From the NCBI GenBank assembly GCA_964016885.1, contig OZ024741.1, positions 248,434,001 through 248,498,000 on the forward strand: 64,000 bases of DNA, written 5' to 3'. This DNA is from Eledone cirrhosa. Taxonomy: Eukaryota. This document shows, in pieces, positions 6,034 to 61,048 of the stretch. A program made the translations under genes and the position numbers. Positions within the stretch are counted from its first letter, which is position 1; every line of letters starts with the position of its first letter. The notes beneath the pieces were generated by a model. The model did not search any database, was not told where the DNA came from, and saw nothing but the letters and a program-made list of their open reading frames with translations.

Positions 6034-6123
6034 GTATGTATGTATGTATGTATGTATGTATGTATGTATGTATGTATGTATGTATGTATGTATGTATGTA
6101 TGTATGTATGTATGTATGTATGT
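6034..6123. repeat. (TATG)n microsatellite
   Basis: Direct sequence. Confidence 0.95.
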
Positions 6124-6739
6124 GTAAGGTCACCAGTTGGTGCTACTGGTAACATGTATCCCAGTACAACCTGTCTCATGGTCGGGTCGTTGGTGACTAA
6201 ACTGGCAACTCCACCAAGGTTTCTTGGTGAGGAGGGTGACTTTGGACATCCTGCAGGACTAAAAACAAAACCTGTCAAAGGGCAAAGGAGCTCTTAAGAG
6301 TCAATGGCCATCCAAAATCACCGGGAGAGATGACCCCTTAGCCTTTGTCAAGGCAGAATTCTAGGAGAAGGAAAACTCTGATATAACACCTGCAACCCTG
6401 ATGGTATCCAATGATGTTGACTTGTTCTTCTTTTTGGTAAATATCATCTTGGTTAAGAGAGTAGGACTGGCTTTGTGCAGTGCCTTTGCTCACTATAAAA
6501 GCTTCACGGCACAGGCATTGCTTTATATCTGGAGATCTCTGATCTCTCTACACTTGTCGTCACATGGTACCATGGGCCCAGCACTATGTGTCAATAATTG
6601 TCACAAGTGTAGTGTTTGTACCAGAGTTTTCAAGTCGCTGGCTGGACTAAAAAGTCACACTCGTTCAGCGCATCGGTAGGGGATCTCCTACATGGATATA
6701 TAGTAGTGGCCGTACTCGAAAACAAGTTGGCAGCCACCA
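6124..6739 (+). mobile_element. ~610-bp RTE-derived non-autonomous retroelement (5' UTR joined to C-terminal C2H2 finger and 3' end), flanked by (TATG)n
   Basis: CTAGGAGAAGGAAAACTCTGA motif of RTE-type 5' UTRs; CSVCTRVFKSLAGLKSHTRSAH zinc finger then stop; ends GGCAGCCACC-(ATGT)n. Near-identical copies at 18797-19288 and 34355-34962. Confidence 0.75.
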
Positions 6740-6823
6740 TGTATGTATGTATGTATGTATGTATGTATGTATGTATGTATGTATGTATGTATGTATGTAT
6801 GTATGTATGTATGTATACATTTG

Positions 6824-18521: not shown

Positions 18522-18796
18522 GCATACATACATAAATGCATACATACATACATACATACATATATACATACATACATACATACATACTTACATACATGCG
18601 TACATACATACATACATACATACATACATACATACATACATACATACATACATACATACGTACGTACGTACGTACATACATACATACATACGTACATACA
18701 TACATACATGCGTACATACATACATACATACATACATGCGTACATACATACATACATACATACATACATACATACATACATACATACATACATACA
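18522..18796. repeat. (CATA)n microsatellite with CATGCGTA/CGTA variants
   Basis: Direct sequence. Confidence 0.95.
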
Positions 18797-19288
18797 TGGT
18801 GGCTGCCAACTCGTTTTCGAGTACGGCCACTACTTTATATCCATGTAGGAGAACCCCTACCGATGCGCTGAACGAATGTGACTTTTTAGTCCAGCCAGCG
18901 ACTTGAAAACTCTGGTACAAAGACTACACTTGTGACCATTATTGACACATAATGCAGGGCCCATGGTACCATGTGATGACAAGTGCAGAGAGATCTCCAG
19001 ATATAAAGCAATGCCTGTGCTGTGAAGCTTTTATAGTGAGCAAAGGCACTGCACAAAGCCAGTCCCACTCTCTTAACCAAGATGATATTTACCAAAAAGA
19101 AGAACAAGTCAACATCATTGGATACCATCAGGGTTGCAGGTGTTATATCAGAGTTTTCCTTCTCCTAGAATTCTGCCTTGACAAAGGCTAAGGGGTCATC
19201 TCTCCCGGTGATTTTGGATGGCTATTGAGTCTTAAGAGCTCCCTTGCCCTTTGACAGGTTTTGTTTTTAGTCCTGCAGGATGTCCAAA
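18797..19288 (-). mobile_element. RTE-derived non-autonomous element, 5'-truncated copy
   Basis: Reverse complement of ~6241-6739; both ends abut (CATA)n. Confidence 0.8.
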
Positions 19289-19324
19289 CATACATACATA
19301 CATACATACATACATACGTACATA

Positions 19325-21868
19325 CAGTTTATCGCAGCTTCGGAGGCAAAAGCTCAATCCCTGTAAACGACACCCCTTCAAAAGAACAGGTTGAGAACTA
19401 CTGGAGATCTGTATGGGAAACGGATGACGGATTCAACAGACAAGCTAATTGGCTAAAACAACTGGAACAGGACTACTGCCAACATGTCCAGACAAAACAA
19501 TATGACATAGATGGGTCAATACTGGAAACAGCTCTACAGAAAATGTCGAATAGGAAATCGCCAGGCCCAGACCTCATTACAGGATACTGGTTGAAGAATT
19601 TCACTTTCTATCGGCAAGATCTCATACGGCTGTTTACAGAAACCATTAAGGGCACACAAGAACTGCCCAGATGGTTATCAACTGCCACTACTCTCCTCAT
19701 TCCCAAAAATAGCCAAACCACCCTTGCTAAAAATTACCGCCCAATTGCCTGCCAAAACATCATGTATAAATTATATACTGGGTGCCTTAACCTGTTCTTA
19801 CAGGATCACTGTGCTACCAACAACATCATAACAGCTGAGCAAGCTGGTGGAAAGAGGGAGGTGTGGGGTTGCATAGATCACCTACTAACTAACAAAATGA
19901 TTCAGGAAAAAACAACAAAGAATCGCAGAAACATGACTGTCGTGTGGCTGGACTATCAAAAAGCATTTGATAGTGTACCTCATGGGTGGATTATTAAGGC
20001 TTTACAGTTAGCTAAAGTCCCACAACCATTAGTAGCTGCTGTTGAACGCCTGACCAAGAACTGGTACACCAATTTGATCCTTAGAGGTGAGAAGGAGCAG
20101 GTTAAGACTGGTAGGATACATTACCAGAAGGGCATCTTTCAGGGTGATAGCTTGTCAGTACTACTCTTCGTTCTCTCACTGAATCCACTATCTTACCTAC
20201 TCAGGAAACAAGGTGGACAAAGAAGTGGGCCCAGAAGTATCTCCCATCTTTTCTTTGTTGATGACCTGAAGTTGTATGGGCCAAATATCAATGACATCAA
20301 GAAACAATTGGACCTCATTACACAATTTTCAACCGACATCAAAATGAAATTTGGTGAGTCCAAGTGTGCATATTTGGCAGTAAAACGTGGAAGAGCTGTG
20401 CCCTCCTCTAGAAATCTAGATATGAACGGCCTGACAATACAACCTCTGCAGTCAGGTGACAACTACAGATATCTTGGACAGGATGAGAATGTCAGATATG
20501 ATGGACCCATAAATAAGGAGAGAACCAGAACTGAATACCTCAGAAGAGTAAAAAAAATATGGTCATCAGAACTGTCAGCATACAACAAATACATTGCCCA
20601 CAATACCTATGCTGTGCCAATTCTAACGCCAACATTTGGCCTACTGAACTGGTCATTGCAAGAACTAAGTGAGATGGATGTTAGAACTCGCAAACTTCTC
20701 AGTGTTACTGGGAACTTTAACATCAATGGTGATGTGGATAGGCTATACTTCTCACGCAAGGAAGGTGGCCGGGGTCTAAAATCAATATTAACAACATATG
20801 AGACCCGGATAGTAACACTGAAGCAACACCTTCAACAGAGGAAAAAGGTTGGCGACCATCTTGCTCAGGTTTATGAGCATGAAAAAAGAAATATCATTAG
20901 AATAGCGACTGATCTGGAGGAGAGATATGGAATAAAGCCTGATATAAATCTCTCACCCAGAGAAATCGGAAGATCCTATTCAATGTTCAAACAAGAAAAA
21001 AAAATTGACCAATTTACAGAGAAAGTTGTGCATGGATACTTGAGGCGTAAAACACAGACCATAGAGGGGATAAACCACTCAAAAAGCCTGGCATGGAGTT
21101 CCGACAAGTTTATGACATCACACCTTGAGGGATATCTCTATGCAATACAGGAACAAGAACTCCCTACCAAATATCTGCTGCACAAAAGAGGAGGGCCAGC
21201 AGCTGACAATAAATGTAGGCTATGTAAAACAAAGATCGAGGATGTAAGCCACATTGTTGCCAGCTGCGAAAGAATGTCATCTCGCTACTACCTCCCCATG
21301 AGACACGATGGGATAGCTAGAACTATCTGGAACGCACTTCGGAAAACAAAATTAACAACAAACGAGGAAGAATATATTGAGACAGATGGCACTAAGGAAT
21401 ACTGGTGGAACCTGAAAATAAAAACTGCCACCAAATTAAAGCACAACCGGCCTGATATTGTAGTTTGGGACCACACATTGAAAACGTGTTCTGTTGTGGA
21501 GATCAGCTGCCCACTTGATGTAAACGTTGTCAGAAAAATACAGGAGAAGGAGGACATCTACGGACCATTGATGAGGAGCTTACAAATCCAGTATCCAAGA
21601 TACACCTTTAGCTTCATACCCATCATTATTGGTGCTACGGACTATATACCAACCCGCTTGGACCAAAGTATGACCGAACTTGGATTTGCGGACAAAAAGC
21701 GCAGCTCCCTAATTCATAGTCTACAAATGGCTGCGATAGCTGGCACCTTCAAAATATGCAAAACATTCTTGCGATTCAAGGCATGACAATTTCTTTTCTT
21801 TTACAACCTTGCCACCAGGAAGGTGGCCGGTCAAAAAAAATATACTCGAAATTAAGAGAAAGAGAAAA
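19325..21868 (+). mobile_element. R4/Dong-like non-LTR retrotransposon, 5'-truncated copy A
   Basis: RT motifs YRPIAC, DYQKAFDSVPH, GIFQGDSLS, FVDD, YLG; CxxC..H..C, RHD, PD..E..K endonuclease. Begins at (CATA)n-CAGTTT and ends AAGAGAAAA-(CATA)n. Confidence 0.9.
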
Positions 21869-21901
21869 CATACATACATACATACATACATACATACATA
21901 C

Positions 21902-24900
21902 AATGTGAGTGACAGACCATACAACACTAGAGTCAGTAAAGAACCCACTAAATTGGAATTGGAAGCGGTGAACGAAATAGCTGGCAGTTATCTGAAGGCT
22001 ATACGATCTAAAGGTGTAGAAACGACATTTGAAACGCTTAATGTTTTGTTATATGTTTCAGCTGTCACATTGCTATCATATAACACACATCTAAAACCAC
22101 GCAATCGAGATACAAGCAGAAAGCCTGAACCAGCGTGGATGCGAAATTTAAAAACCAAAATTTTGTCCCTTAGACGAAGTATCTCACACATCGCAGTCGT
22201 TATGAAATGCAACATAGAGAGCAACTTCACACGACACCAGGAAGACCTAAAGAAAAAGTTAGAGAGACGATTTGGAGATACAAAATTTAAAACTTTGAAC
22301 TCCAAATTACACCAGTTGAAACAGCAACTCACAGCTACAACAGAAAGACTAAAATATAAGTCAACAGCACATAAACAACAAGTGCTAAATAGAATGTTTG
22401 CCAGAGATCCTAAATAAGTTTATCGCAGCTTCGGTGGCAAAAGCTCAATCTCTGTAAATGACACCCCTTCAAAAGAACAGGTTGAGAGCTACTGGAGATC
22501 TGTATGGGAAACGGATGACGGATTCAACAGACAAGCTAATTGGCTAAAAGAACTGGAACAGGACTACTGTCAACATGTCCAGACAAAACAATATGACATA
22601 GATGGGTCAATACTGGAAACAGCTCTACAGAAAATGTCGGATAGGAAATCGCCAGGCCCAGACCTCATTACAGGATACTGGTTGAAGAATTTCACTTTCT
22701 ATCGGCAAGATCTCATACGGCTGTTTACAGAAACCATTAAGGGCACACAAGAACTGCCCAGATGGTTATCAACTGCCTCTACTCTCCTCATTCCCCAAAA
22801 TAGCCAAACCACCCTTGCTAAAAATTACCGCCCAATTGCCTGCCAAAACATCATGTATAAATTATATACTGGGTGCCTTAACCTGTTCTTACAGGATCAC
22901 TGTGCTACCAACAACATCATAACAGCTGAGCAAGCTGGTGGAAAGAGGGAGGTGTGGGGTTGCATAGATCACCTACTAACTAACAAAATGATTCAGGAAA
23001 AAACAACAAAGAATCGCAGAAACATGACTGTCGTGTGGCTGGACTATCAAAAAGCATTTGATAGTGTACCTCATGGGTGGATTGTTAAGGCTTTACAGTT
23101 AGCTAAAGTCCCACAACCATTGGTAGCTGCTGTTGAACGCCTGACCAAGAACTGGTACACCAGTTTGATCCTTAGAGGTGAGAAGGAGCAGGTTAAGACT
23201 GATAAGATACATTACCAGAAGGGCATCTTTCAGGGTGATAGCTTGTCAGTGCTACTCTTCGTTCTCTCACTGAATCCACTATCTTACCTACTCAGGAAAC
23301 AAGGTGGACAAAGAAGTGGGCCCAGAAGTATCTCCCATCTTTTCTTTGTTGATGACCTGAAGTTGTATGGGCCAAATATCAATGACATCAAGAAACAATT
23401 GGACCTCATTACACAATTTTCAACCGACATCAAAATGAAATTTGGTGAGTCCAAGTGTGCATATTTGGCAGTAAAACGTGGAAGAGCTGTGCCCTCCTCT
23501 AGAAATCTAGATATGAACGGCCTGACAATACAACCTCTGCAGTCAGGTGACAACTACAGATATCTTGGACAGGATGAGAATGTCAGATATGATGGACCCA
23601 TAAATAAGGAGAGAACCAGAACTGAATACCTCAGAAGAGTAAAAAAAATATGGTCATTAGAACTGTCAGCATACAACAAATACATTGCCCACAATACCTA
23701 TGCTGTGCCAATTCTAACGCCAACATTTGGCCTACTGAACTGGTCATTGCAAGAACTAAGTGAGATGGATGTTAGAACTCGCAAACTTCTCAGTGTTACT
23801 GGGAACTTTAACATCAATGGTGATGTGGATAGGCTATACTTCTCACGCAAGGAAGGTGGCCGGGGTCTAAAATCAATATTAACAACATATGAGACCCGGA
23901 TAGTAACACTGAAGCAACACCTTCAACAGAGGAAAAAGGTTGGCGACCATCTTGCTCAGGTTTATGAGCATGAAAAAAGAAATATCATTAGAATAGCGAC
24001 TGATCTGGAGGAGAGATATGGAATAAAGCCTGATATAAATCTCTCACCCAGAGAAATCGGAAGATCCTATTCAATGTTCAAACAAGAAAAAAAAATTGAC
24101 CAATTTACAGAGAAAGTTGTGCATGGATACTTGAGGCGTAAAACACAGACCATAGAGGGGATAAACCACTCAAAAAGCCTGGCATGGAGTTCCGACAAGT
24201 TTATGACATCACACCTTGAGGGATATCTCTATGCAATACAGGAACAAGAACTCCCTACCAAATATCTGCTGCACAAAAGAGGAGGGCCAGCAGCTGACAA
24301 TAAATGTAGGCTATGTAAAACAAAGATCGAGGATGTAAGCCACATTGTTGCCAGCTGCGAAAGAATGTCATCTCGCTACTACCTCCCCATGAGACACGAT
24401 GGGATAGCTAGAACTATCTGGAACGCACTTCGGAAAACAAAATTAACAACAAACGAGGAAGAATATATTGAGACAGATGGCACTAAGGAATACTGGTGGA
24501 ACCTGAAAATAAAAACTGCCACCAAATTAAAGCACAACCGGCCTGATATTGTAGTTTGGGACCACACATTGAAAACGTGTTCTGTTGTGGAGATCAGCTG
24601 CCCACTTGATGTAAACGTTGTCAGAAAAATACAGGAGAAGGAGGACATCTACGGACCATTGATGAGGAGCTTACAAATCCAGTATCCAAGATACACCTTT
24701 AGCTTCATACCCATCATTATTGGTGCTACGGACTATATACCAACCCGCTTGGACCAAAGTATGACCGAACTTGGATTTGCGGACAAAAAGCGCAGCTCCC
24801 TAATTCATAGTCTACAAATGGCTGCGATAGCTGGCACCTTCAAAATATGCAAAACATTCTTGCGATTCAAGGCATGACAATTTCTTTTCTTTTACAACCT

Positions 24901-24959
24901 TGCCACCAGGAAGGTGGCCGGTCAAAAAAAATATACTCGAAATTAAGAGAAAGAGAAAA
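21902..24959 (+). mobile_element. R4/Dong-like retrotransposon, 5'-truncated copy B (premature stop 22415-22417; residual ORF 22634-24877)
   Basis: Near-identical to the full-length copy from AATGTGAGTGAC onward; TCA>TAA nonsense change. Confidence 0.9.
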
Positions 24960-24992
24960 CATACATACATACATACATACATACATACATAC

Positions 24993-27900
24993 AATGTGAG
25001 TGACAGACCATACAACACTAGAGTCAGTAAAGAACCCACTAAATTGGAATTGGAAGCGGTGAACGAAATAGCTGGCAGTTATCTGAAGGCTATACGATCT
25101 AAAGGTGTAGAAACGACATTTGAAACGCTTAATGTTTTGTTATATGTTTCAGCTGTCACATTGCTATCATATAACACACATCTAAAACCACGCAATCGAG
25201 ATACAAGCAGAAAGCCTGAACCAGCGTGGATGCGAAATTTAAAAACCAAAATTTTGTCCCTTAGACGAAGTATCTCACACATCGCAGTCGTTATGAAATG
25301 CAACATAGAAAGCAACTTCACACGACACCAGGAAGACCTAAAGAAAAAGTTAGAGAGACGATTTGGAGATACAAAATTTAAAACTTTGAACTCCAAATTA
25401 CACCAGTTGAAACAGCAACTCACAGCTACAACAGAAAGACTAAAATATAAGTCAACAGCACATAAACAACAAGTGCTAAATAGAATGTTTGCCAGAGATC
25501 CTAAATAAGTTTATCGCAGCTTCGGTGGCAAAAGCTCAATCTCTGTAAATGACACCCCTTCAAAAGAACAGGTTGAGAGCTACTGGAGATCTGTATGGGA
25601 AACGGATGACGGATTCAACAGACAAGCTAATTGGCTAAAAGAACTGGAACAGGACTACTGTCAACATGTCCAGACAAAACAATATGACATAGATGGGTCA
25701 ATACTGGAACCAGCTCTACAGAAAATGTCGGATAGGAAATCGCCAGGCCCAGACCTCATTACAGGATACTGGTTGAAGAATTTCACTTTCTATCGGCAAG
25801 ATCTCATACGGCTGTTTACAGAAACCATTAAGGGCACACAAGAACTGCCCAGATGGTTATCAACTGCCTCTACTCTCCTCATTCCCCAAAATAGCCAAAC
25901 CACCCTTGCTAAAAATTACCGCCCAATTGCCTGCCAAAACATCATGTATAAATTATATACTGGGTGCCTTAACCTGTTCTTACAGGATCACTGTGCTACC
26001 AACAACATCATAACAGCTGAGCAAGCTGGTGGAAAGAGGGAGGTGTGGGGTTGCATAGATCACCTACTAACTAACAAAATGATTCAGGAAAAAACAACAA
26101 AGAATCGCAGAAACATGACTGTCGTGTGGCTGGACTATCAAAAAGCATTTGATAGTGTACCTCATGGGTGGATTGTTAAGGCTTTACAGTTAGCTAAAGT
26201 CCCACAACCATTGGTAGCTGCTGTTGAACGCCTGACCAAGAACTGGTACACCAGTTTGATCCTTAGAGGTGAGAAGGAGCAGGTTAAGACTGATAAGATA
26301 CATTACCAGAAGGGCATCTTTCAGGGTGATAGCTTGTCAGTGCTACTCTTCGTTCTCTCACTGAATCCACTATCTTACCTACTCAGGAAACAAGGTGGAC
26401 AAAGAAGTGGGCCCAGAAGTATCTCCCATCTTTTCTTTGTTGATGACCTGAAGTTGTATGGGCCAAATATCAATGACATCAAGAAACAATTGGACCTCAT
26501 TACACAATTTTCAACCGACATCAAAATGAAATTTGGTGAGTCCAAGTGTGCATATTTGGCAGTAAAACGTGGAAGAGCTGTGCCCTCCTCTAGAAATCTA
26601 GATATGAACGGCCTGACAATACAACCTCTGCAGTCAGGTGACAACTACAGATATCTTGGACAGGATGAGAATGTCAGATATGATGGACCCATAAATAAGG
26701 AGAGAACCAGAACTGAATACCTCAGAAGAGTAAAAAAAATATGGTCATTAGAACTGTCAGCATACAACAAATACATTGCCCACAATACCTATGCTGTGCC
26801 AATTCTAACGCCAACATTTGGCCTACTGAACTGGTCATTGCAAGAACTAAGTGAGATGGATGTTAGAACTCGCAAACTTCTCAGTGTTACTGGGAACTTT
26901 AACATCAATGGTGATGTGGATAGGCTATACTTCTCACGCAAGGAAGGTGGCCGGGGTCTAAAATCAATATTAACAACATATGAGACCCGGATAGTAACAC
27001 TGAAGCAACACCTTCAACAGAGGAAAAAGGTTGGCGACCATCTTGCTCAGGTTTATGAGCATGAAAAAAGAAATATCATTAGAATAGCGACTGATCTGGA
27101 GGAGAGATATGGAATAAAGCCTGATATAAATCTCTCACCCAGAGAAATCGGAAGATCCTATTCAATGTTCAAACAAGAAAAAAAAATTGACCAATTTACA
27201 GAGAAAGTTGTGCATGGATACTTGAGGCGTAAAACACAGACCATAGAGGGGATAAACCACTCAAAAAGCCTGGCATGGAGTTCCGACAAGTTTATGACAT
27301 CACACCTTGAGGGATATCTCTATGCAATACAGGAACAAGAACTCCCTACCAAATATCTGCTGCACAAAAGTGGAGGGCCAGCAGCTGACAATAAATGTAG
27401 GCTATGTAAAACAAAGATCGAGGATGTAAGCCACATTGTTGCCAGCTGCGAAAGAATGTCATCTCGCTACTACCTCCCCATGAGACACGATGGGATAGCT
27501 AGAACTATCTGGAACGCACTTCGGAAAACAAAATTAACAACAAACGAGGAAGAATATATTGAGACAGATGGCACTAAGGAATACTGGTGGAACCTGAAAA
27601 TAAAAACTGCCACCAAATTAAAGCACAACCGGCCTGATATTGTAGTTTGGGACCACACATTGAAAACGTGTTCTGTTGTGGAGATCAGCTGCCCACTTGA
27701 TGTAAACGTTGTCAGAAAAATACAGGAGAAGGAGGACATCTACGGACCATTGATGAGGAGCTTACAAATCCAGTATCCAAGATACACCTTTAGCTTCATA
27801 CCCATCATTATTGGTGCTACGGACTATATACCAACCCGCTTGGACCAAAGTATGACCGAACTTGGATTTGCGGACAAAAAGCGCAGCTCCCTAATTCATA

Positions 27901-28050
27901 GTCTACAAATGGCTGCGATAGCTGGCACCTTCAAAATATGCAAAACATTCTTGCGATTCAAGGCATGACAATTTCTTTTCTTTTACAACCTTGCCACCAG
28001 GAAGGTGGCCGGTCAAAAAAAATATACTCGAAATTAAGAGAAAGAGAAAA
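24993..28050 (+). mobile_element. R4/Dong-like retrotransposon, copy C (residual ORF 25725-27968)
   Basis: Same truncation point and stop as B; period 3091 bp. Confidence 0.9.
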
Positions 28051-28087
28051 CATACATACATACATACATACATACATACATACATAC

Positions 28088-31000
28088 AATGTGAGTGACA
28101 GACCATACAACACTAGAGTCAGTAAAGAACCCACTAAATTGGAATTGGAAGCGGTGAACGAAATAGCTGGCAGTTATCTGAAGGCTATACGATCTAAAGG
28201 TGTAGAAACGACATTTGAAACGCTTAATGTTTTGTTATATGTTTCAGCTGTCACATTGCTATCATATAACACACATCTAAAACCACGCAATCGAGATACA
28301 AGCAGAAAGCCTGAACCAGCGTGGATGCGAAATTTAAAAACCAAAATTTTGTCCCTTAGACGAAGTATCTCACACATCGCAGTCGTTATGAAATGCAACA
28401 TAGAGAGCAACTTCACACGACACCAGGAAGACCTAAAGAAAAAGTTAGAGAGACGATTTGGAGATACAAAATTTAAAACTTTGAACTCCAAATTACACCA
28501 GTTGAAACAGCAACTCACAGCTACAACAGAAAGACTAAAATATAAGTCAACAGCACATAAACAACAAGTGCTAAATAGAATGTTTGCCAGAGATCCTAAA
28601 TAAGTTTATCGCAGCTTCGGTGGCAAAAGCTCAATCTCTGTAAATGACACCCCTTCAAAAGAACAGGTTGAGAGCTACTGGAGATCTGTATGGGAAACGG
28701 ATGACGGATTCAACAGACAAGCTAATTGGCTAAAAGAACTGGAACAGGACTACTGTCAACATGTCCAGACAAAACAATATGACATAGATGGGTCAATACT
28801 GGAAACAGCTCTACAGAAAATGTCGGATAGGAAATCGCCAGGCCCAGACCTCATTACAGGATACTGGTTGAAGAATTTCACTTTCTATCGGCAAGATCTC
28901 ATACGGCTGTTTACAGAAACCATTAAGGGCACACAAGAACTGCCCAGATGGTTATCAACTGCCTCTACTCTCCTCATTCCCCAAAATAGCCAAACCACCC
29001 TTGCTAAAAATTACCGCCCAATTGCCTGCCAAAACATCATGTATAAATTATATACTGGGTGCCTTAACCTGTTCTTACAGGATCACTGTGCTACCAACAA
29101 CATCATAACAGCTGAGCAAGCTGGTGGAAAGAGGGAGGTGTGGGGTTGCATAGATCACCTACTAACTAACAAAATGATTCAGGAAAAAACAACAAAGAAT
29201 CGCAGAAACATGACTGTCGTGTGGCTGGACTATCAAAAAGCATTTGATAGTGTACCTCATGGGTGGATTGTTAAGGCTTTACAGTTAGCTAAAGTCCCAC
29301 AACCATTGGTAGCTGCTGTTGAACGCCTGACCAAGAACTGGTACACCAGTTTGATCCTTAGAGGTGAGAAGGAGCAGGTTAAGACTGATAAGATACATTA
29401 CCAGAAGGGCATCTTTCAGGGTGATAGCTTGTCAGTGCTACTCTTCGTTCTCTCACTGAATCCACTATCTTACCTACTCAGGAAACAAGGTGGACAAAGA
29501 AGTGGGCCCAGAAGTATCTCCCATCTTTTCTTTGTTGATGACCTGAAGTTGTATGGGCCAAATATCAATGACATCAAGAAACAATTGGACCTCATTACAC
29601 AATTTTCAACCGACATCAAAATGAAATTTGGTGAGTCCAAGTGTGCATATTTGGCAGTAAAACGTGGAAGAGCTGTGCCCTCCTCTAGAAATCTAGATAT
29701 GAACGGCCTGACAATACAACCTCTGCAGTCAGGTGACAACTACAGATATCTTGGACAGGATGAGAATGTCAGATATGATGGACCCATAAATAAGGAGAGA
29801 ACCAGAACTGAATACCTCAGAAGAGTAAAAAAAATATGGTCATCAGAACTGTCAGCATACAACAAATACATTGCCCACAATACCTATGCTGTGCCAATTC
29901 TAACGCCAACATTTGGCCTACTGAACTGGTCATTGCAAGAACTAAGTGAGATGGATGTTAGAACTCGCAAACTTCTCAGTGTTACTGGGAACTTTAACAT
30001 CAATGGTGATGTGGATAGGCTATACTTCTCACGCAAGGAAGGTGGCCGGGGTCTAAAATCAATATTAACAACATATGAGACCCGGATAGTAACACTGAAG
30101 CAACACCTTCAACAGAGGAAAAAGGTTGGCGACCATCTTGCTCAGGTTTATGAGCATGAAAAAAGAAATATCATTAGAATAGCGACTGATCTGGAGGAGA
30201 GATATGGAATAAAGCCTGATATAAATCTCTCACCCAGAGAAATCGGAAGATCCTATTCAATGTTCAAACAAGAAAAAAAAATTGACCAATTTACAGAGAA
30301 AGTTGTGCATGGATACTTGAGGCGTAAAACACAGACCATAGAGGGGATAAACCACTCAAAAAGCCTGGCATGGAGTTCCGACAAGTTTATGACATCACAC
30401 CTTGAGGGATATCTCTATGCAATACAGGAACAAGAACTCCCTACCAAATATCTGCTGCACAAAAGAGGAGGGCCAGCAGCTGACAATAAATGTAGGCTAT
30501 GTAAAACAAAGATCGAGGATGTAAGCCACATTGTTGCCAGCTGCGAAAGAATGTCATCTCGCTACTACCTCCCCATGAGACACGATGGGATAGCTAGAAC
30601 TATCTGGAACGCACTTCGGAAAACAAAATTAACAACAAACGAGGAAGAATATATTGAGACAGATGGCACTAAGGAATACTGGTGGAACCTGAAAATAAAA
30701 ACTGCCACCAAATTAAAGCACAACCGGCCTGATATTGTAGTTTGGGACCACACATTGAAAACGTGTTCTGTTGTGGAGATCAGCTGCCCACTTGATGTAA
30801 ACGTTGTCAGAAAAATACAGGAGAAGGAGGACATCTACGGACCATTGATGAGGAGCTTACAAATCCAGTATCCAAGATACACCTTTAGCTTCATACCCAT
30901 CATTATTGGTGCTACGGACTATATACCAACCCGCTTGGACCAAAGTATGACCGAACTTGGATTTGCGGACAAAAAGCGCAGCTCCCTAATTCATAGTCTA

Positions 31001-31145
31001 CAAATGGCTGCGATAGCTGGCACCTTCAAAATATGCAAAACATTCTTGCGATTCAAGGCATGACAATTTCTTTTCTTTTACAACCTTGCCACCAGGAAGG
31101 TGGCCGGTCAAAAAAAATATACTCGAAATTAAGAGAAAGAGAAAA
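28088..31145 (+). mobile_element. R4/Dong-like retrotransposon, copy D (residual ORF 28820-31063)
   Basis: Same truncation and stop; spacer one CATA unit longer (period 3095). Confidence 0.9.
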
Positions 31146-31178
31146 CATACATACATACATACATACATACATACATAC

Positions 31179-33850
31179 AATGTGAGTGACAGACCATACA
31201 ACACTAGAGTCAGTAAAGAACCCACTAAATTGGAATTGGAAGCGGTGAACGAAATAGCTGGCAGTTATCTGAAGGCTATACGATCTAAAGGTGTAGAAAC
31301 GACATTTGAAACGCTTAATGTTTTGTTATATGTTTCAGCTGTCACATTGCTATCATATAACACACATCTAAAACCACGCAATCGAGATACAAGCAGAAAG
31401 CCTGAACCAGCGTGGATGCGAAATTTAAAAACCAAAATTTTGTCCCTTAGACGAAGTATCTCACACATCGCAGTCGTTATGAAATGCAACATAGAGAGCA
31501 ACTTCACACGACACCAGGAAGACCTAAAGAAAAAGTTAGAGAGACGATTTGGAGATACAAAATTTAAAACTTTGAACTCCAAATTACACCAGTTGAAACA
31601 GCAACTCACAGCTACAACAGAAAGACTAAAATATAAGTCAACAGCACATAAACAACAAGTGCTAAATAGAATGTTTGCCAGAGATCCTAAATAAGTTTAT
31701 CGCAGCTTCGGTGGCAAAAGCTCAATCTCTGTAAATGACACCCCTTCAAAAGAACAGGTTGAGAGCTACTGGAGATCTGTATGGGAAACGGATGACGGAT
31801 TCAACAGACAAGCTAATTGGCTAAAAGAACTGGAACAGGACTACTGTCAACATGTCCAGACAAAACAATATGACATAGATGGGTCAATACTGGAAACAGC
31901 TCTACAGAAAATGTCGGATAGGAAATCGCCAGGCCCAGACCTCATTACAGGATACTGGTTGAAGAATTTCACTTTCTATCGGCAAGATCTCATACGGCTG
32001 TTTACAGAAACCATTAAGGGCACACAAGAACTGCCCAGATGGTTATCAACTGCCTCTACTCTCCTCATTCCCCAAAATAGCCAAACCACCCTTGCTAAAA
32101 ATTACCGCCCAATTGCCTGCCAAAACATCATGTATAAATTATATACTGGGTGCCTTAACCTGTTCTTACAGGATCACTGTGCTACCAACAACATCATAAC
32201 AGCTGAGCAAGCTGGTGGAAAGAGGGAGGTGTGGGGTTGCATAGATCACCTACTAACTAACAAAATGATTCAGGAAAAAACAACAAAGAATCGCAGAAAC
32301 ATGACTGTCGTGTGGCTGGACTATCAAAAAGCATTTGATAGTGTACCTCATGGGTGGATTGTTAAGGCTTTACAGTTAGCTAAAGTCCCACAACCATTGG
32401 TAGCTGCTGTTGAACGCCTGACCAAGAACTGGTACACCAGTTTGATCCTTAGAGGTGAGAAGGAGCAGGTTAAGACTGATAAGATACATTACCAGAAGGG
32501 CATCTTTCAGGGTGATAGCTTGTCAGTGCTACTCTTCGTTCTCTCACTGAATCCACTATCTTACCTACTCAGGAAACAAGGTGGACAAAGAAGTGGGCCC
32601 AGAAGTATCTCCCATCTTTTCTTTGTTGATGACCTGAAGTTGTATGGGCCAAATATCAATGACATCAAGAAACAATTGGACCTCATTACACAATTTTCAA
32701 CCGACATCAAAATGAAATTTGGTGAGTCCAAGTGTGCATATTTGGCAGTAAAACGTGGAAGAGCTGTGCCCTCCTCTAGAAATCTAGAGATGAACGGCCT
32801 GACAATACAACCTCTGCAGTCAGGTGACAACTACAGATATCTTGGACAGGATGAGAATGTCAGATATGATGAACCCATAAATAAGGAGAGAACCAGAACT
32901 GAATACCTCAGAAGAGTAAAGAAAATATGGTCATCAGAACTGTCAGCATACAACAAACACATTGCCCACAATACTTATGCTGTGCCAATTCTAACGCCAA
33001 CATTTGGCCTACTGAACTGGTCATTGCAAGAACTAAGTGAGATGGATGTTAGAACTCGCAAACTTCTCAGTGTTACTGGGAACTTTAACATCAATGGTGA
33101 TGTGGATAGGCTATACTTCTCACGCAAGGAAGGTGGCCGGGGTCTAAAATCAATATTAACAACATATGAGACCCGGATAGTAACACTGAAGCAACACCTT
33201 CAACAGAGGAAAAAGGTTGGCAACCATCTTGCCCAGGTTTATGACCATGAAAAAAGAAATATCATTAGAATAGCGACTGATCTGGAGGAGAGATATGGAA
33301 TAAAGCCTGATATAAATCTCTCACCCAGAGAAATCGGAAGATCCTATTCAATGTTCAAACAAGATAAAAAAATTGACCAATTTACAGAAAAAGTTGTGCA
33401 TGGATACTTGAGGCGTAAAACACAGACCATAGAGGGGATAAACCACTCAAAAAGCCTGGCATGGAATTCCGACACGTTTATGACATCACACATTGAGGGA
33501 TATCTCTATGCAATACAGGAACAAGAACTCCCTACCAAATATCTGCTGCACAAAAGTGGAGGGCCAGCAGCTGACAATAAATGTAGGCTATGTAAAACAA
33601 AGATCGAGGATGTAAGCCACATTGTTGCCAGCTGCGAAAGAATGTCATCTCGCTACTACCTCCCCATGAGACACGATGGGATAGCTAGAACCATCTGGAA
33701 CGCACTTCGGAAAACAAAATTAACAACAAACGAGGAAGAATATATTGAGACAGATGGCACTAAGGAATACTGGTGGAACCTGAAAATAAAAACTGCCACC
33801 AAATTAAAGCACAACCGGCCTGATATTTTTGTTTGGGACCACACATTGAA
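31179..33850 (+). mobile_element. R4/Dong-like retrotransposon, copy E, 5'- and 3'-truncated
   Basis: Same 5' end as B-D; more diverged 3' half; breaks after NRPDIFVWDHTL into (CATA)n. Confidence 0.9.
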
Positions 33851-34354
33851 CATGCGTACATACATACATACATGCGTACATACATACATACATGCGTACA
33901 TACATACATACATACATACATACATACATACATACATACATACATACATACATACATACATACATACATACATGCGTACATACATACATACATACATACA
34001 TATATACATACATACATGCATGCATACATACATACATACATACATACATACATACATACATACATACATGCGTACATACATGCATACATGCGTACATACA
34101 TACATACATACATACATGCGTACAAACATACATACATACATATATACATATACATACATATATACATACGTACATAAATACATGCGTACATACATACATA
34201 CATACATACATACATACATACATACATGCGTACATACATACATACATACATACATACATACATACATACATACATACATACATGCGTACATACATACATA
34301 CATACATACATACATACATACATACATACATACATACATACATGCGTACATACA
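33851..34354. repeat. (CATA)n microsatellite with CATGCGTA variants
   Basis: Direct sequence. Confidence 0.95.
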
Positions 34355-34962
34355 TGGTGGCTGCCAATTCGTTTTCGAGTACGGCCACTACTTTATATCC
34401 ATGTAGGAGAACTCCTACCGATGCGCTGAACGAGTGTGACTTTTTAGTCCAGCCAGCGACTTGAAAACTCTGGTACAAACACTACACTTGTGATATTGTT
34501 GACACATAGTGCTGGGCCCATATTACCATGTGACGACAAGTGCAGAGAGATCTCCAGATATAAAAAAATGCCTGTGCCGTGAAGCTTTTATAGTGAGCAA
34601 AGGCACTGCACAAAGCCAGTCCCACTCTCTTAACCAAGATGATATTTACCAAAAAGAAGAACAAGTCAACATCATTGGATACCATCAGAGTTGCAGGTGC
34701 TATATCAGAGTTTTCCTTCTCCTAGAATTCTGCCTTGACAAAGGCTAAGGGGTCATCTCTCCCGGTGATTTTGGATGGCCATTGACTCTTAAGAGCTCCT
34801 TTGCCCTTTAACAGGTTTTGTTTTTAGTCCTGCAGGATGTCCAAAGTCACCATCCTCACCAAGAAACCTTGGTGGGGTTGCCAGTTTAGTCGCCAACGAC
34901 CCGACCATGAGACAGGTTGTACTGGGATACATGTTACCAGTAGCACCAACTGGTGACCTGAC
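34355..34962 (-). mobile_element. RTE-derived non-autonomous element, full-length copy
   Basis: Reverse complement of 6124-6739 at high identity. Confidence 0.8.
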
Positions 34963-35270
34963 ATGTATGTATGTATGTATGTATGTATGTATGTATGTAT
35001 GTATGTATGTATGTATGTATGTATGTATGTATGTACGCATGTATGTATGTATGTATGTACGCATGTATGTATGTATGTATGTATATATGTATGTATGTAT
35101 ATATGTATGTATGTACGCATGTATATACATACATACATGCGTACATACATACATATATACATACATATATACATACATACATACATACATACATACATAC
35201 GTACATACATACATACATACATACATACATACATACATACATACATACATACATGCGTACATACATACAT
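34963..35270. repeat. Inverted microsatellite: (TATG)n followed by (CATA)n
   Basis: Orientation switches at ~35125. Confidence 0.9.
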
Positions 35271-38200
35271 CATACAATGGCGACCGTTGTGGTCAGTGTC
35301 CGATAATTGGACGTGTGTAATTACGGCTTACATGAAGGCAACATACCATATATTGGAAAAAGTTGAGCTACATTACGCGGTAAGATTACATACAATAATT
35401 CTACATAAGTGTTTGAACTTTAAGTGTGTTGTAAAACACCTATTTATATGAACGATACATACACTTATGATATATGAACGATACATACACTTTAACATAT
35501 AAATGCAACGTTGTTATATTACATTTATAAAGAAATATAAAAGTAACGTTTTCGATTCAGAAACAAAAATATAAGTGTTTGAACTGTGAATGTTGTGAAT
35601 ATGTTGTAGAACACCTATTTATATGAATGATACATAAACTTTAACATATAAATACAGCATTGTTATATTATATTACATTCGTAAAGGAATATACTAAGTA
35701 ACGGTTCTTTTTGTTCTCGATTCAAACGATTCAAGAACAACGTTTAAAACACAGTTGTAGAATTAAAAACTAACTGAAAAGAAATATTACCCAAGCTGTG
35801 AATAACTTTAAATTTGATTCTGACAGAACTTTGTCGTAACTTTTAAAGAAGATCATCGACTATTTAAAAAAAATAAATACAAAATATTAGTGAATAGACG
35901 AACTCATCATGGCAAAAAGTACAAGTCTCCTTCGACCAAATCGCAATTACAACCGTTGTATACAGTGGAGCTACGAGCTTAACAAAGAATTATATGAAGC
36001 ATACAAACAATCTGAACCCCAAAAGTTCGGTTTTATGCAAAGGCTAAAAACTTTATGGAACTCCAAACACCCAGAATTAGACTTTTCTCCAAAGCATCTA
36101 AATGAACAGGCAAAACGTATCATTAGATGTAAATTGATACATCTAACGGAATCGAGTGATACTACAAATACAGCCCTTGTAGACAACCACCCCACCTCCA
36201 CTGACAGACAAAGAGAATGGCCGGCTAAATCTAACAGTGAACAGCTCACCAACAATTTTGCTGAAATCCATCCCACTTCCACTGAAGAACAGCGAGAAAG
36301 GTCAGCTGACTCTAGTAGTAATTGTCACCACATCAACAACGAGGCTGCAATTCATGACTCTACTGAACAAACAGAGCACCAAAAACTTGTGGGCACCCTA
36401 CAAGTGATATGGAACGATATGTTTCAAGAGATACACAGCCTTAATGTGAGTGACAGACCATACAACACTAGAGTCAGTAAAGAACCCACTAAATTGGAAT
36501 TGGAAGCGGTGAACGAAATAGCTGGCAATTATCTGAAGGCTATACGATCTAAAGGTGTAGAAACGACATTTGAAACGCTCAATGTTTTGTTATATGTTTC
36601 AGCTGTCACATTGCTATCATATAACACACATCTAAAACCACGCAATCAAGATACAAACAGAAAGCCTGAACCAGCGTGGATGCGAAATTTAAAAACCAAA
36701 ATTTTGTCCCTGAGACGAAGTATCTCACACATCGCAGTCGTTATGAAATGCAACATAGAGAGAAACTTCACACGACACCAGGAAGACCTAAAGAAAAAGT
36801 TAGAGAGACGATTTGGAGATACCAAATTTAAAACTTTGAACTCCAAATTACACCAGTTGAAACAACAACTCACAGCTACAACAGAAAGACTAAAATATAA
36901 GTCAACAGCCCATAAACGACAAGTGCTAAATAGATTGTTTGCCAGAGATCCTAAATCAGTTTATCGCAGCTTCGGTGGCAAAAGCTCAATCCCTGTAAAC
37001 GACACCCCTTCAAAAGAACAGGTTGAGAACTACTGGAGATCTGTATGGGAAACGGATGACGGATTCAACAGACAAGCTAATTGGCTAAAACAACTGGAAC
37101 AGGACTACTGCCAACATGTCCAGACAAAACAATATGACATAGATGGGTCAATACTGGAAACAGCTCTACAGAAAATGTCGAATAGGAAATCGCCAGGCCC
37201 AGACCTCATTACAGGATACTGGTTGAAGAATTTCACTTTCTATCGGCAAGATCTCATACGGCTGTTTACAGAAACCATTAAGGGCACACAAGAACTGCCC
37301 AGATGGTTATCAACTGCCACTACTCTCCTCATTCCCAAAAATAGCCAAACCACCCTTGCTAAAAATTACCGCCCAATTGCCTGCCAAAACTTCATGTATA
37401 AATTATATACTGGGTGCCTTAACCTGTTCTTACAGGATCACTGTGCTACCAACAACATCATAACACCTGAGCAAGCTGGTGGAAAGAGGGAGGTGTGGGG
37501 TTGCATAGATCACCTACTAACTAACAAAATGATTCAGGAAAAAACAACAAAGAATCGCAGAAACATGACTGTCGTGTGGCTGGACTATCAAAAAGCATTT
37601 GATAGTGTACCTCATGGGTGGATTATTAAGGCTTTACAGTTAGCTAAAGTCCCACAACCATTAGTAGCTGCTGTTGAACGCCTGACCAAGAACTGGTACA
37701 CCAATTTGATCCTTAGAGGTGAGAAGGAGCAGGTTAAGACTGATAGGATACATTACCAGAAGGGCATCTTTCAGGGTGATAGCTTGTCAGTACTACTCTT
37801 CGTTCTCTCACTGAATCCACTATCTTACCTACTCAGGAAACAAGGTGGACAAAGAAGTGGGCCCAGAAGTATCTCCCATCTTTTCTTTGTTGATGACCTG
37901 AAGTTGTATGGGCCAAATATCAATGACATCAAGAAACAATTGGACCTCATTACACAATTTTCAACCGACATCAAAATGAAATTTGGTGAGTCCAAGTGTG
38001 CATATTTGGCAGTAAAACGTGGAAGAGCTGTGCCCTCCTCTAGAAATCTAGATATGAACGGCCTGACAATACAACCTCTGCAGTCAGGTGACAACTACAG
38101 ATATCTTGGACAGGATGAGAATGTCAGATATGATGGACCCATAAATAAGGAGAGAACCAGAACTGAATACCTCAGAAGAGTAAAAAAAATATGGTCATCA

Positions 38201-39499
38201 GAACTGTCAGCATACAACAAATACATTGCCCACAATACCTATGCTGTGCCAATTATAACGCCAACATTTGGCCTACTGAACTGGTCATTGCAAGAACTAA
38301 GTGAGATGGATGTTAGAACTCGTAAACTTCTCAGTGTTACTGGGAACTTTAACATCAATGGTGATGTGGATAGGCTATACTTCTCACGCAAGGAAGGTGG
38401 CCGGGGTCTAAAATCAATATTAACAACATATGAGACCCGGATAGTAACACTGAAGCAACACCTTCAACAGAGGAAAAAGGTTGGCGACCATCTTGCTCAG
38501 GTTTATGAGCATGAAAAAAGAAATATCATTAGAATAGCGACTGATCTGGAGGAGAGATATGGAATAAAGCCTGATATAAATCTCTCACCCAGAGAAATCG
38601 GAAGATCCTATTCAATGTTCAAACAAGAAAAAAAAATTGACCAATTTACAGAGAAAGTTGTGCATGGATACTTGAGGCGTAAAACACAGACCATAGAGGG
38701 GATAAACCACTCAAAAAGCCTGGCATGGAGTTCCGACAAGTTTATGACATCACACCTTGAGGGATATCTCTATGCAATACAGGAACAAGAACTCCCTACC
38801 AAATATCTGCTGCACAAAAGAGGAGGGCCAGCAGCTGACAATAAATGTAGGCTATGTAAAACAAAGATCGAGGATGTAAGCCACATTGTTGCCAGCTGCG
38901 AAAGAATGTCATCTCGCTACTACCTCCCCATGAGACACGATGGGATAGCTAGAACTATCTGGAACGCACTTCGGAAAACAAAATTAACAACAAACGAGGA
39001 AGAATATATTGAGACAGATGGCACTAAGGAATACTGGTGGAACCTGAAAATAAAAACTGCCACCAAATTAAAGCACAACCGGCCTGATATTGTAGTTTGG
39101 GACCACACATTGAAAACGTGTTCTGTTGTGGAGATCAGCTGCCCACTTGATGTAAACGTTGTCAGAAAAATACAGGAGAAGGAGGACATCTACGGACCAT
39201 TGATGAGGAGCTTACAAATCCAGTATCCAAGATACACCTTTAGCTTCATACCCATCATTATTGGTGCTACGGGTTATATACCAACCCGCTTGGACCAAAG
39301 TATGACCGAACTTGGATTTGCGGACAAAAAGCGCAGCTCCCTAATTCATAGTCTACAAATGGCTGCGATAGCTGGCACCTTCAAAATATGCAAAACATTC
39401 TTGCGATTCAAGGGATGACAATTTCTTTTCTTTTACAACCTTGCCACCAGGAAGGTGGCCGGTCAAAAAAATATACTCGAAATTAAGAGAAAGAGAAAA
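35271..39499 (+). mobile_element. Full-length R4/Dong-like non-LTR retrotransposon inserted in (CATA)n (copy F)
   Basis: ~640-bp 5' UTR, single intact ORF, 81-bp 3' UTR without poly(A), (CATA)n on both sides. Confidence 0.92.
35909..39418 (+). CDS. 1169-aa reverse transcriptase / CCHC / restriction-like endonuclease (RLE) polyprotein, R4-clade-like
   Basis: Uninterrupted ORF. N-terminal QWSYELNKELYEAY motif; KSPGPD, YRPIAC, DYQKAFDSV, GIFQGDSLS, FVDDLK; CRLC..HIVASC, RHD, NRPDIVV, VEISCP, KEDIY. Confidence 0.93.
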   Translation: MAKSTSLLRPNRNYNRCIQWSYELNKELYEAYKQSEPQKFGFMQRLKTLWNSKHPELDFSPKHLNEQAKRIIRCKLIHLTESSDTTNTALVDNHPTSTDRQREWPAKSNSEQLTNNFAEIHPTSTEEQRERSADSSSNCHHINNEAAIHDSTEQTEHQKLVGTLQVIWNDMFQEIHSLNVSDRPYNTRVSKEPTKLELEAVNEIAGNYLKAIRSKGVETTFETLNVLLYVSAVTLLSYNTHLKPRNQDTNRKPEPAWMRNLKTKILSLRRSISHIAVVMKCNIERNFTRHQEDLKKKLERRFGDTKFKTLNSKLHQLKQQLTATTERLKYKSTAHKRQVLNRLFARDPKSVYRSFGGKSSIPVNDTPSKEQVENYWRSVWETDDGFNRQANWLKQLEQDYCQHVQTKQYDIDGSILETALQKMSNRKSPGPDLITGYWLKNFTFYRQDLIRLFTETIKGTQELPRWLSTATTLLIPKNSQTTLAKNYRPIACQNFMYKLYTGCLNLFLQDHCATNNIITPEQAGGKREVWGCIDHLLTNKMIQEKTTKNRRNMTVVWLDYQKAFDSVPHGWIIKALQLAKVPQPLVAAVERLTKNWYTNLILRGEKEQVKTDRIHYQKGIFQGDSLSVLLFVLSLNPLSYLLRKQGGQRSGPRSISHLFFVDDLKLYGPNINDIKKQLDLITQFSTDIKMKFGESKCAYLAVKRGRAVPSSRNLDMNGLTIQPLQSGDNYRYLGQDENVRYDGPINKERTRTEYLRRVKKIWSSELSAYNKYIAHNTYAVPIITPTFGLLNWSLQELSEMDVRTRKLLSVTGNFNINGDVDRLYFSRKEGGRGLKSILTTYETRIVTLKQHLQQRKKVGDHLAQVYEHEKRNIIRIATDLEERYGIKPDINLSPREIGRSYSMFKQEKKIDQFTEKVVHGYLRRKTQTIEGINHSKSLAWSSDKFMTSHLEGYLYAIQEQELPTKYLLHKRGGPAADNKCRLCKTKIEDVSHIVASCERMSSRYYLPMRHDGIARTIWNALRKTKLTTNEEEYIETDGTKEYWWNLKIKTATKLKHNRPDIVVWDHTLKTCSVVEISCPLDVNVVRKIQEKEDIYGPLMRSLQIQYPRYTFSFIPIIIGATGYIPTRLDQSMTELGFADKKRSSLIHSLQMAAIAGTFKICKTFLRFKG

Positions 39500-39551
39500 C
39501 ACATACATGCGTACATACATACATACATGCGTACATACATACATACATGCG

Positions 39552-39585
<34 letters not shown>

Positions 39586-39600
39586 CATACGTACGTACAT
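39500..39600. repeat. (CATA)n 3' flank
   Basis: Direct sequence. Confidence 0.9.
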
Positions 39601-39800
39601 AATGTACATATGAGAGAGAGAGAGAGAGAGAATAGGTACTAACTGCGTGTGTGGAGGGTGTTTTAGATCTATGGGACTGTGTGTGGTTTTAAACGAATAT
39701 ATCAGATAAACTGGAATACGAATAGTGTTTATCTATGTAAATGCTATTAATACAGACAAAAGATAAATATTTACACATATGTGTTTTACACACACACACA

Positions 39801-56733: not shown

Positions 56734-58570
56734 ATGTCAATAAGACAACGTTCCAGCGGAGGTAAATATAAACGAAAATATTACAAAGGAAAAGAAGATT
56801 GTTACAGATTTAAAATTAACAAATATTTCTAACACAAACAACACCAACAATAACACCAACAACAACACCAACACCAACACCAACAACAACACCATCAATA
56901 ACAACAGTAACAACAAAAATAACAGCGGTAAGGTCGAGAACGACAACAACAATGACAATAACAACAGCCACAACAACAATAATAGTAGGAACAGTATCAA
57001 CAAAAACAACAATAATAACAACAGCCACAATAACAGTAACAACAGCCACAATAACAGTAACAACAGCAACAACGAAAACAACGACAACAACACCAACAAC
57101 TGTACCAACGAAAACATCAACAATGACATCGATACATGTACCAGCGATCTCAGCACCACCAGTAAGACCAGTAGCGGCAGCAATAGTGGTGCTGCTGAAA
57201 AAGGGACCACTTCTTTTGCAGGTGTCGCCCGAAATATCGAGACAGTGTTAGTCACAGAGGCGAAGATGGCAGTCGCAAGGGTCATGGTGACAAGAAGCGC
57301 CAATTTTTTCAAGGACCAGCAGCTACAGACGGTAACTTACCGCACCGTAAGCAAAATCTCACATCGGGGGGAGAGAGCCACGGAGGCTCAAATCCAAAAG
57401 GCCTTGGGGTGCGTCTGGGCACGCAAAACCCACATCACCCGAGGCAGAAAGTACGCCACAGTAGACGTACTTTTCGCCACCCCCCAGGAAGAAAAGTGTC
57501 ACTCTTTGGAAACCCTAAAGAGTGAGGAGATAGTCTTGGTGCCCTCCTACTGCGGGCAGAAAATTGTGAGGGTCAAAGTGACCCAGGTCCCACCCGACGT
57601 GCCCATACCTTGGCTGGCCGCGTATGTCCTTGCTGGAATCGAGGACAGGACGACCATGCTGCAAGTAGAGAAAATAGGGAGAGAGAACTGGTCAGGTATA
57701 GGCATGCAAATGCTTATACAAACTGACCAGGAATGTATCGACGCTATCCCCGATATCATAGACATCGAGGAAGGACTCCAACTCCCTATAAGCGTAGAAG
57801 GAAGACAGCCAAAATGTTATCTCTATGAGTCGAAGGTTCACCTCAGGACCTTTTGCCCGCAGAAGACAGCGAAGAAGAAGACCCCTCTCCTTTCAATACC
57901 TAGTCCGCTGCTACCAAGAGCAGGGCAGGCAACAAACGCAGAAGCCCCTTCCACGGTGAGTAGGAGGGCAACGTCCGTGGCACCCGTACCAAGGCCACGG
58001 ACAACTAAAGCAGCAGCATCAGTGGCGGCAACACCAATAGCTTCATTTGAAGTAGCTACACCAGCAACAAAATTGCCGAAGAGGGCTCCACTACTACCAC
58101 CATCAGCCGTGGAGCACATACCCCTCCCAGACGCTACGGAATCCGACATGGAGTTTGAGGCGGGAGTGAAGTGGCAAACGGTCTGCCACAAAAAAAAAAA
58201 ACGAAAAAATCCCTTAGATTCACCCTCCAAAAGCGAAGGCACACAAAGAGGGGTAAAGGCAGCAAGGAAACTTGCAGCAACACAACCACCATCACCATCA
58301 CCACCACAAGCACCATTGATAACAACAACCACACCACCACCAGCATCACCCAAAACACCAACAACGCAAACAAAACAATACACACACACCAAACAGCAAC
58401 AAGAAGAAAACAGGAACAAAATCACCCCTCCCCCAAAAAAGTACACAGCCATAAACATGGCAAAAAAAGAACTCATACAATATATAAAACAGCACACAGA
58501 CATCACAGATAAAAAACTACTACACCCCACCAACACCAAGAACTCTCCCGACAAATATAAGCATCATTGA
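56734..58570 (+). pseudogene. Tx1-like ORF1 (Asn-rich N-terminus, degenerate zinc knuckle)
   Basis: Frame open from 56744 to 58570; ATG at 56734 is one base out of frame. VEGRQPKCYLYESKVHLRTFCP is CX2CX4HX4C with the second C changed to Y; WQTVCHKKKKRK basic motif. Confidence 0.65.
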
Positions 58571-58771
58571 AATCTCAATAGAACAGTACAAACCTTTAAA
58601 ACAAAAATTCTCCAACGCAGTTGGAGACTTCAGAGGGTCAGTTACCAAGAGGATATACACTGACATCCTCTTGGAAACACCCATGACCAGCGAAATGGAC
58701 GGTTCTACTGTCCCTTTACCACACGATCAAGGTAAGTGACCCTTTATCACTTGCCCCGTTTCTCATTCAAC

Positions 58772-60848: not shown

Positions 60849-61048
60849 NNNNNNNNNNNNNNNNNNNNNNNNNNNNNNNNNNNNNNNNNNNNNNNNNNNN
60901 NNNNNNNNNNNNNNNNNNNNNNNNNNNNNNNNNNNNNNNNNNNNNNNNNNNNNNNNNNNNNNNNNNNNNNNNNNNNNNNNNNNNNNNNNNNNNNNNNNNN
61001 NNNNNNNNNNNNNNNNNNNNNNNNNNNNNNNNNNNNNNNNNNNNNNNN
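60849..61048. other. Assembly gap (200 N)
   Basis: Run of N. Confidence 1.

Follow-up and report, generated by a model that had tools for sequence, protein, structure and literature searches.

Introduction

R4/Dong retrotransposons carry a reverse transcriptase (RT), a restriction-like (REL or RLE) endonuclease and a diverged Myb domain but lack zinc fingers, and their targets are mostly TAA (PMC7998251), a (TAA)n target being reported in most insects, molluscs and cnidarians (PMC7998251; PMC3812793). Here we describe family 1, an R4/Dong-like element of Eledone cirrhosa found beside (CATA)n arrays in a window of 64,000 nt (the whole stretch analysed: contig OZ024741.1, positions 248,434,001 to 248,498,000, of the 3.0-Gb assembly GCA_964016885.1; all segment coordinates are window positions), where its full-length representative was named copy F. 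Like Dong of Bombyx mori, DongAg, DongBg and the ostracod Dong, family 1 presents one open reading frame (ORF) coding for RT and a restriction-like endonuclease, lacks a zinc finger at the N-terminus and has a microsatellite target (PMC7998251). However, the target of Dong is (TAA)n, whereas family 1 is associated with (CATA)n and falls on a long branch away from the TAA-flanked sequences of our trees; with its CATA flanks, it was not considered a Dong in the narrow sense. Insertion into ribosomal DNA (rDNA) or microsatellites, another trait of R4/Dong elements, is reflected in those flanks.

The R4/Dong affinity, already proposed when the letters of the window alone had been inspected (hereafter the sequence-only reading), is supported by architecture and similarity, in a comparison holding no labelled R4, NeSL or HERO sequences. 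Family 1 was much closer to insect proteins from genera that PMC7998251 treats as Dong-like than it was to R2, and the copy F protein gave a full-length alignment with a multi-copy B. mori protein bearing no Dong label (30% identity over 1190 amino acids (aa), E 1e-160). The best structural matches of the predicted copy F protein were R2 proteins (R2Bm and R2Tg, Foldseek E 2.5e-35 to 1.9e-34), but sequence similarity to R2 was far lower (102 bits, phmmer). In addition, R2 elements carry zinc fingers at the N-terminus and occupy a single site in 28S rDNA; family 1 shows neither trait, so that membership of R2 was rejected. With regard to the target, WaldoAg1, WaldoAg2 and WaldoFs1 are similar elements, since Waldo targets ACAY microsatellites, which cover the CATA repeat, and Dong targets TAA (PMC3812793). 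Waldo, however, has an endonuclease of the apurinic (APE) type and belongs to the R1 clade according to a cited title; the overlap of targets is convergent.

In cephalopods, Dong-R4 elements have expanded in coleoids (PMC8967140, PMC10294476), Octopus bimaculoides has a Dong consensus with a full ORF (PMC9115989) and five recently active families with 1129 insertions of ~4.2 kb each, totalling 4.73 Mb, are reported in O. vulgaris (PMC13282606, Table 1). The available parts of PMC13282606 and PMC9115989 state no target for the Octopus families, one of which, likened to family 1 by description only, may be a close relative of it or the same family. Short family 1 motifs were absent from 8 of 12 supplementary files of PMC9115989 searched. 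No CATA or other four-base target for the R4/Dong clade was found in the literature covered, which did not include Repbase, Dfam, Kojima and Fujiwara 2004, Fujiwara 2015 and Fell et al. 2025, any of which could contain it.

Family 1 copies lie in CATA arrays throughout the genome

Copies were counted genome-wide by exact sequence patterns, and 200 kb taken from 20 arbitrary places of the genome were used as background. Exact 3' ends of family 1 were followed by ACATA in 1458 of 1649 cases, against 0.29% of background positions. The claim of the sequence-only reading that 3' ends run straight into CATA with no poly(A) needs two corrections in the window itself: copy F continues into CACATACATGCG, a variant array rather than perfect CATA, and copy E lost its 3' end at 33850, so that its contact with CATA is not a native 3' junction.

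At the 5' side, at least 8 nt of abutting CATA were required, and loci were picked by internal pattern or protein without regard to their flanks. Non-CATA 5' flanks, which the sequence-only reading had named as the observation that would speak against a CATA target, were few: CATA abutted 28 of 34 truncated 5' ends, with 33 distinct truncation points (background 0.37%), and 28 of 30 full-length ones. Neither (TA)n nor (CA)n abutted any of the 34 truncated ends, (TA)n abutting 3.4% of random positions; the background contained 400 strand-bases of (CATA)3+, 16,484 of (TA)6+ and 1,954 of (CA)6+. In a larger, partly biased set (97 hits, 92 after removal of duplicates, 91 with clean 3' ends) CATA was present at 48 of 53 truncated 5' ends. 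Both the 3' and the 5' counts exclude a chance association with CATA. Furthermore, the two flanks of one copy had private repeat variants in common in 14 of the 91 copies (permuted pairs: mean 3.1, maximum 9, in 2000 permutations), and therefore the arrays likely existed before the insertion and are the target and not a tail. One more truncation point flanked by CATA on its 5' side came from raw reads of a run sharing its species label with the best holder. The 3' end also entered CATA in contigs labelled as three other organisms, two of these contigs being of low depth and perhaps from mixed samples.

All these results indicate, with a probability of about 0.85, that family 1 copies sit in (CATA)n in one fixed orientation, likely by protein binding, nicking and reverse transcription at a pre-existing array. 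CATA is a well-supported new target for a known type of element, and we infer that the endonuclease itself reads the repeat. Several observations weigh against this interpretation. First of all, 191 of the 1649 exact 3' ends were not followed by ACATA, the exceptions being mostly repeat variants in a sample of 52 ends, and six of the 34 truncated 5' ends missed the strict CATA test, all six having CATA within ~40 nt. One short copy of the larger set (L068) lacked CATA at the 5' side. Neither an empty allele nor an empty paralogue was recovered, the pre-insertion state being only deduced: a search for family 1 copies inserted into the short CATA tract inside the second Dong-like family described below, which would provide an empty site, gave 0 matches, and among the matches listed for 116 insertions whose empty paralogous sites were sought there were only other composite arrays. 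Finally, the 5' arrays were longer than the 3' arrays (median 73 vs 38 nt, p 0.0015), an excess for which a passive target alone does not account.

Junctions and alternative explanations

The 3' junction had a fixed phase, with one A ambiguous, and its first two repeat units were the purest (ACATACATA in 34 of 52 ends). The 5' joins occurred in all four phases of the repeat, with at least 1 nt of microhomology in 33 of 42. There was no fixed target-site duplication; an informative junction duplication was found in 6 of 91 copies (null mean 0.8), with unequal lengths. The protein would bind a pre-existing (CATA)n array and nick the TATG strand at a fixed phase, where the element RNA would be reverse-transcribed. 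By analogy with R2 biochemistry, the structured 3' untranslated region (UTR) would be bound by the protein, the Myb-like domain and the endonuclease would read the repeat, the freed 3'-OH would prime the cDNA at the A-ending 3' end of the RNA, and the cDNA end would be joined to the upstream array in any phase through short microhomology.

The 5' array excess would be produced by a long upstream binding tract, by variable duplication or by slipped synthesis. It is a tentative possibility that the target is real but the enzyme also makes target, extending the array on the 5' side by slipped repeated copying while the cDNA is joined. The 5' array exceeded the 3' array in 58 of the 91 copies, only 4 of 74 background arrays reached 69 nt and two copies, L166 and L069, have 28 and 146 nt, respectively, of extra CATA-type repeat between a duplicated variant block and the element. 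However, the same asymmetry would result from the need for a long binding tract upstream or from long duplications of variable size, which measured 20-46 nt in three copies, and L166 and L069 adjoin the 5' end of an RTE-like element which could be the source of the extra repeat.

Choice of the site by RNA seems rather unlikely. In this case transcripts would read through into the CATA array downstream of the donor copy and, once a nick of loose specificity had been made, this RNA tail would pair with the TATG strand, setting both site and phase. The fixed 3' phase and the purity of the first two units agree with it, as do the absence of a poly(A) marking an end and the fact that such arrays also host an unrelated element, likely derived from RTE, whose tail is (TATG)n. 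Nevertheless, the 3' flanks often carried locus-specific variants within 4-8 nt which recurred in the 5' flank of the same copy, and the type of flank tracks the protein tree, as expected for a protein-encoded specificity, although inherited read-through would track it too. Lastly, wide insertion with CATA as an element-made tail, or with survival only in such arrays, is highly improbable despite the microsatellite tails known for RTE elements (PMC9115989), given that CATA was found at 33 different 5' truncation points and was already beside near-identical young copies, that private variants are common to both flanks, and that the 40-fold more abundant (TA)n is unused; CATA as a tail was thus rejected.

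Organization of the window

Six related segments (A-F) lie head to tail in a single orientation beside (CATA)n, as the sequence-only reading had stated:

19289..19324, plus strand: (CATA)n 5' flank of copy A
19325-21868, plus strand: copy A, independent insertion, 5'-truncated
21902-24959 (copy B), 24993-28050 (copy C) and 28088-31145 (copy D), plus strand: 5' part like E, 3' part like A
21902..31145, plus strand: B-C-D block, units of 3091-3095 nt, based on the single-nucleotide polymorphism (SNP) table
31179-33850, plus strand: copy E, independent 5'-truncated insertion, 3' end lost
33857..34355, plus strand: 500-nt (CATA)n array carrying CATGCGTA variants
34963..35275, no strand assigned: fold-back array, (TATG)n arm followed by (CATA)n arm, the right arm being the 5' flank of copy F
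35276-39499, plus strand: copy F, full-length element of family 1
39500..39601, plus strand: (CATA)n 3' flank of copy F, with a CATGCGTA variant shared with its 5' flank

Copies B, C, D and E have a single common 5' truncation point, and B, C and D differ from one another in 1-4 of 3058 nt, being identical to E up to element position ~2518 and to A from ~2779 on. Judging from these sequences, B-D are A/E recombinants, likely produced by unequal crossing-over between two neighbouring insertions. The SNP pattern and the common truncation point therefore leave three independent insertions (A, E and F), and six independent insertions were rejected. The number of B-D units was taken from the assembly, which may have affected it. 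Three independent 5' junctions with 1-2 nt of microhomology, also claimed at the outset, were confirmed. The fold-back microsatellite, which lies between the RTE-like element and copy F, has arms with mirrored variants and is possibly a snap-back or template-switch product.

The element and its protein

Copy F is an intact 4.2-kb element whose 5' end is (A)ATGGCG, with one base ambiguous. Its features, all on the plus strand, were as follows:

35276..35908: 5' UTR, 633 nt, with internal repeats
35909..39418: single ORF, 1169 aa; AlphaFold mean predicted local distance difference test (pLDDT) 89, predicted template modelling score (pTM) 0.81
35972..36130: N-terminal three-helix domain, aa 22-74; helices confidently predicted in the structure model and a conserved W/Y/R pattern
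37331..38086: RT core, aa 475-726; Pfam RVT_1, E 3.1e-25
38846..38899: CCHC zinc knuckle, C980, C983, H992 and C997
39083..39193: restriction-like endonuclease motifs P1059-D1060, E1075, K1091 and Y1095
39419..39499: 3' UTR, 81 nt, no poly(A)

The Pfam match and the motif alignment bear out the intact frame with RT, CCHC, RHD and PD..E..K motifs initially noticed, an R1009-H1010-D motif being also present. The features of RLE-type non-LTR (long terminal repeat) elements were found, namely a single ORF in which the RT precedes a CCHC knuckle and a PD-(D/E)xK-type endonuclease, a fixed 3' end, variable 5' truncation and no terminal repeats. The 3' UTR was predicted to fold into a hairpin, with its terminal purine run paired with the first pyrimidine run of the UTR (z -3.3; none of 200 shuffles was equally stable).

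Neither a C2H2 nor a CCHC motif was identified in the N-terminal alignment or structure model. The N-terminal region gave a weak profile alignment to that of an R2 protein, the Pfam scan of the copy F protein yielded no Myb match, and a fold search, based on a poor single-sequence model (pLDDT 64), gave no clear match. As modelled, the three helices are likely the diverged Myb/SANT-like domain of R4/Dong elements. A 5' ribozyme similar to that of hepatitis delta virus (HDV) is reported for R4 and B. mori Dong (PMC3774820); in copy F there was no relevant Rfam match, and a descriptor search lacking a validated positive control gave nothing convincing.

Relatives of family 1

The nearest named protein was from Argonauta hians (64% identical). 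Two further groups of Dong-like copies were found in the same genome:

L256-L294, e.g. L286:2937-5753: second Dong-like family, ~5000 exact 3' ends
L160, 2990-6496 and 7146-9912, minus strand: tandem pair of divergent Dong-like copies associated with TAA, the first of which aligns over nearly the whole protein

The second family, whose protein is ~45-55% identical to that of family 1, is older, its copies being ~90% alike. Its 3' ends were followed by ACATA in 4206 of 4980 cases, and several of its truncated 5' ends (not tallied) also abut CATA. L160, a distant relative (28% identity), has (TAA)n on both sides. Among metagenomic sequences, the closest relative with visible flanks is contig L296 (1-4871), with an intact 1153-aa frame, 51.5% RT identity and (CTTA)n at both ends; the contig of L299, the other close relative, shows no flank. 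Nine more distant loci of the 80 metagenomic ones have TAA-type repeats at both ends.

Trees including 17 of the 80 metagenomic loci were quick, unrooted searches with Shimodaira-Hasegawa-like approximate likelihood ratio test (SH-aLRT) supports. In them the CATA and CTTA elements clustered with Argonauta and other sequences (100% SH-aLRT) on a long branch separate from all TAA-flanked rows, L160 included, and from the Bombyx, Pediculus and Sitophilus proteins; most rows of that branch have no known flanks and the split is unrooted. From this we infer that the use of four-base targets, C(A/T)TA, characterizes a deep branch of the clade which is separate from the Dong branch with its TAA targets, an extension of the CATA finding which is likely. 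Against it, the evidence for this lineage comes from three families and one short-read contig, and from quick trees without bootstrap or labelled outgroups (R4, Rex6, NeSL and HERO). A broader scenario is doubtful as a whole, namely that an undescribed deep R4/Dong branch switched from TAA to C(A/T)TA, that its members differ by one target base (CATA vs CTTA) with a single Myb-like reader, and that the enzyme lengthens the array at the 5' junction, so that insertions supply new targets both to the element itself and to its co-residents.

Other repeats, (CT)n, (TTA)n, (ATT)n, (AT)n and (ACA)n, follow the 3' ends of the metagenomic Dong-like relatives L307, L313, L319, L326 and L359, respectively.

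Copy number and age

An exact 33-mer of the 3' UTR occurred 2184 times in the genome and an exact 5' 26-mer 315 times. The whole frame was kept in 26 of the 38 loci fetched through the 5' end, and full-length loci were 98.9-99.95% identical to copy F, the 38-locus set having been selected for similarity to F and thus favouring F-like copies. These identities support that family 1 is young and recently amplified, and copies ~99.9% identical would be less than 1 million years old at the O. bimaculoides rate quoted in PMC13282606. Of the first description of the family as young and possibly active, youth stands and present-day activity is a possibility, but the finding is less new than claimed, as Dong-R4 had already been reported as recently active in Octopus (PMC13282606, PMC9115989). 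No RNA run carrying the element was present among the listed sequencing runs, which says nothing on expression.

Two loci (L083 and L253) are internally deleted derivatives keeping both ends, and raw reads showed excess depth over the first 140 nt of family 1; short non-autonomous forms may exist. Near-identical element sequence was also seen in sequencing runs under several other organism labels (X3, X5 and X7-X11; word share 0.29-0.72), which may represent close relatives, mixed samples or transfer.

Co-resident elements

The RTE-like element next to copy F has the following copies in the window:

34354..34963, minus strand: 610-nt non-autonomous element that keeps a C2H2 finger remnant and ends in (TATG)n
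6123-6741, plus strand: further copy
18795-19288, minus strand: further copy, truncated

From the description in PMC9115989 it is likely RTE-derived. There are at least 999 candidates genome-wide, usually with (TATG)n or (TA)n on both sides, 5' truncations included (L117-L145). It shares CATA arrays with family 1, where its orientation is the opposite one, but (TA)n is used as well, and by a rough motif count one of its ends lies near 42 of the 91 family 1 copies.

Elsewhere in the window, a two-ORF long interspersed nuclear element (LINE) at 56744-61054 has a 608-aa frame followed by an RT frame interrupted by a 200-nt assembly gap (60849-61048), and from the gap onward (61049-64000) there is a tandem satellite whose units of ~25-28 nt show higher-order structure.

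Discussion

The enzyme of family 1 had been put forward as a candidate for site-specific gene insertion. It is repeat-specific rather than single-site, the CATA repeat occurring 15 times in 200 kb of random genome, and its value as a single-site tool is limited because the target is a very common dispersed repeat, with many loci and no one safe site. Family 1 is of interest for the question of how RLE retrotransposons without zinc fingers choose their target. As one genome holds intact or near-intact relatives targeting CATA and TAA, and a CTTA-flanked relative exists elsewhere, the location of the specificity is open to domain swaps and substrate panels. The finding explains the landing sites of an abundant, recently active class of cephalopod LINEs. 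In addition, several element families pile up in CATA arrays, a point of relevance to microsatellite markers in octopods and to assembly.

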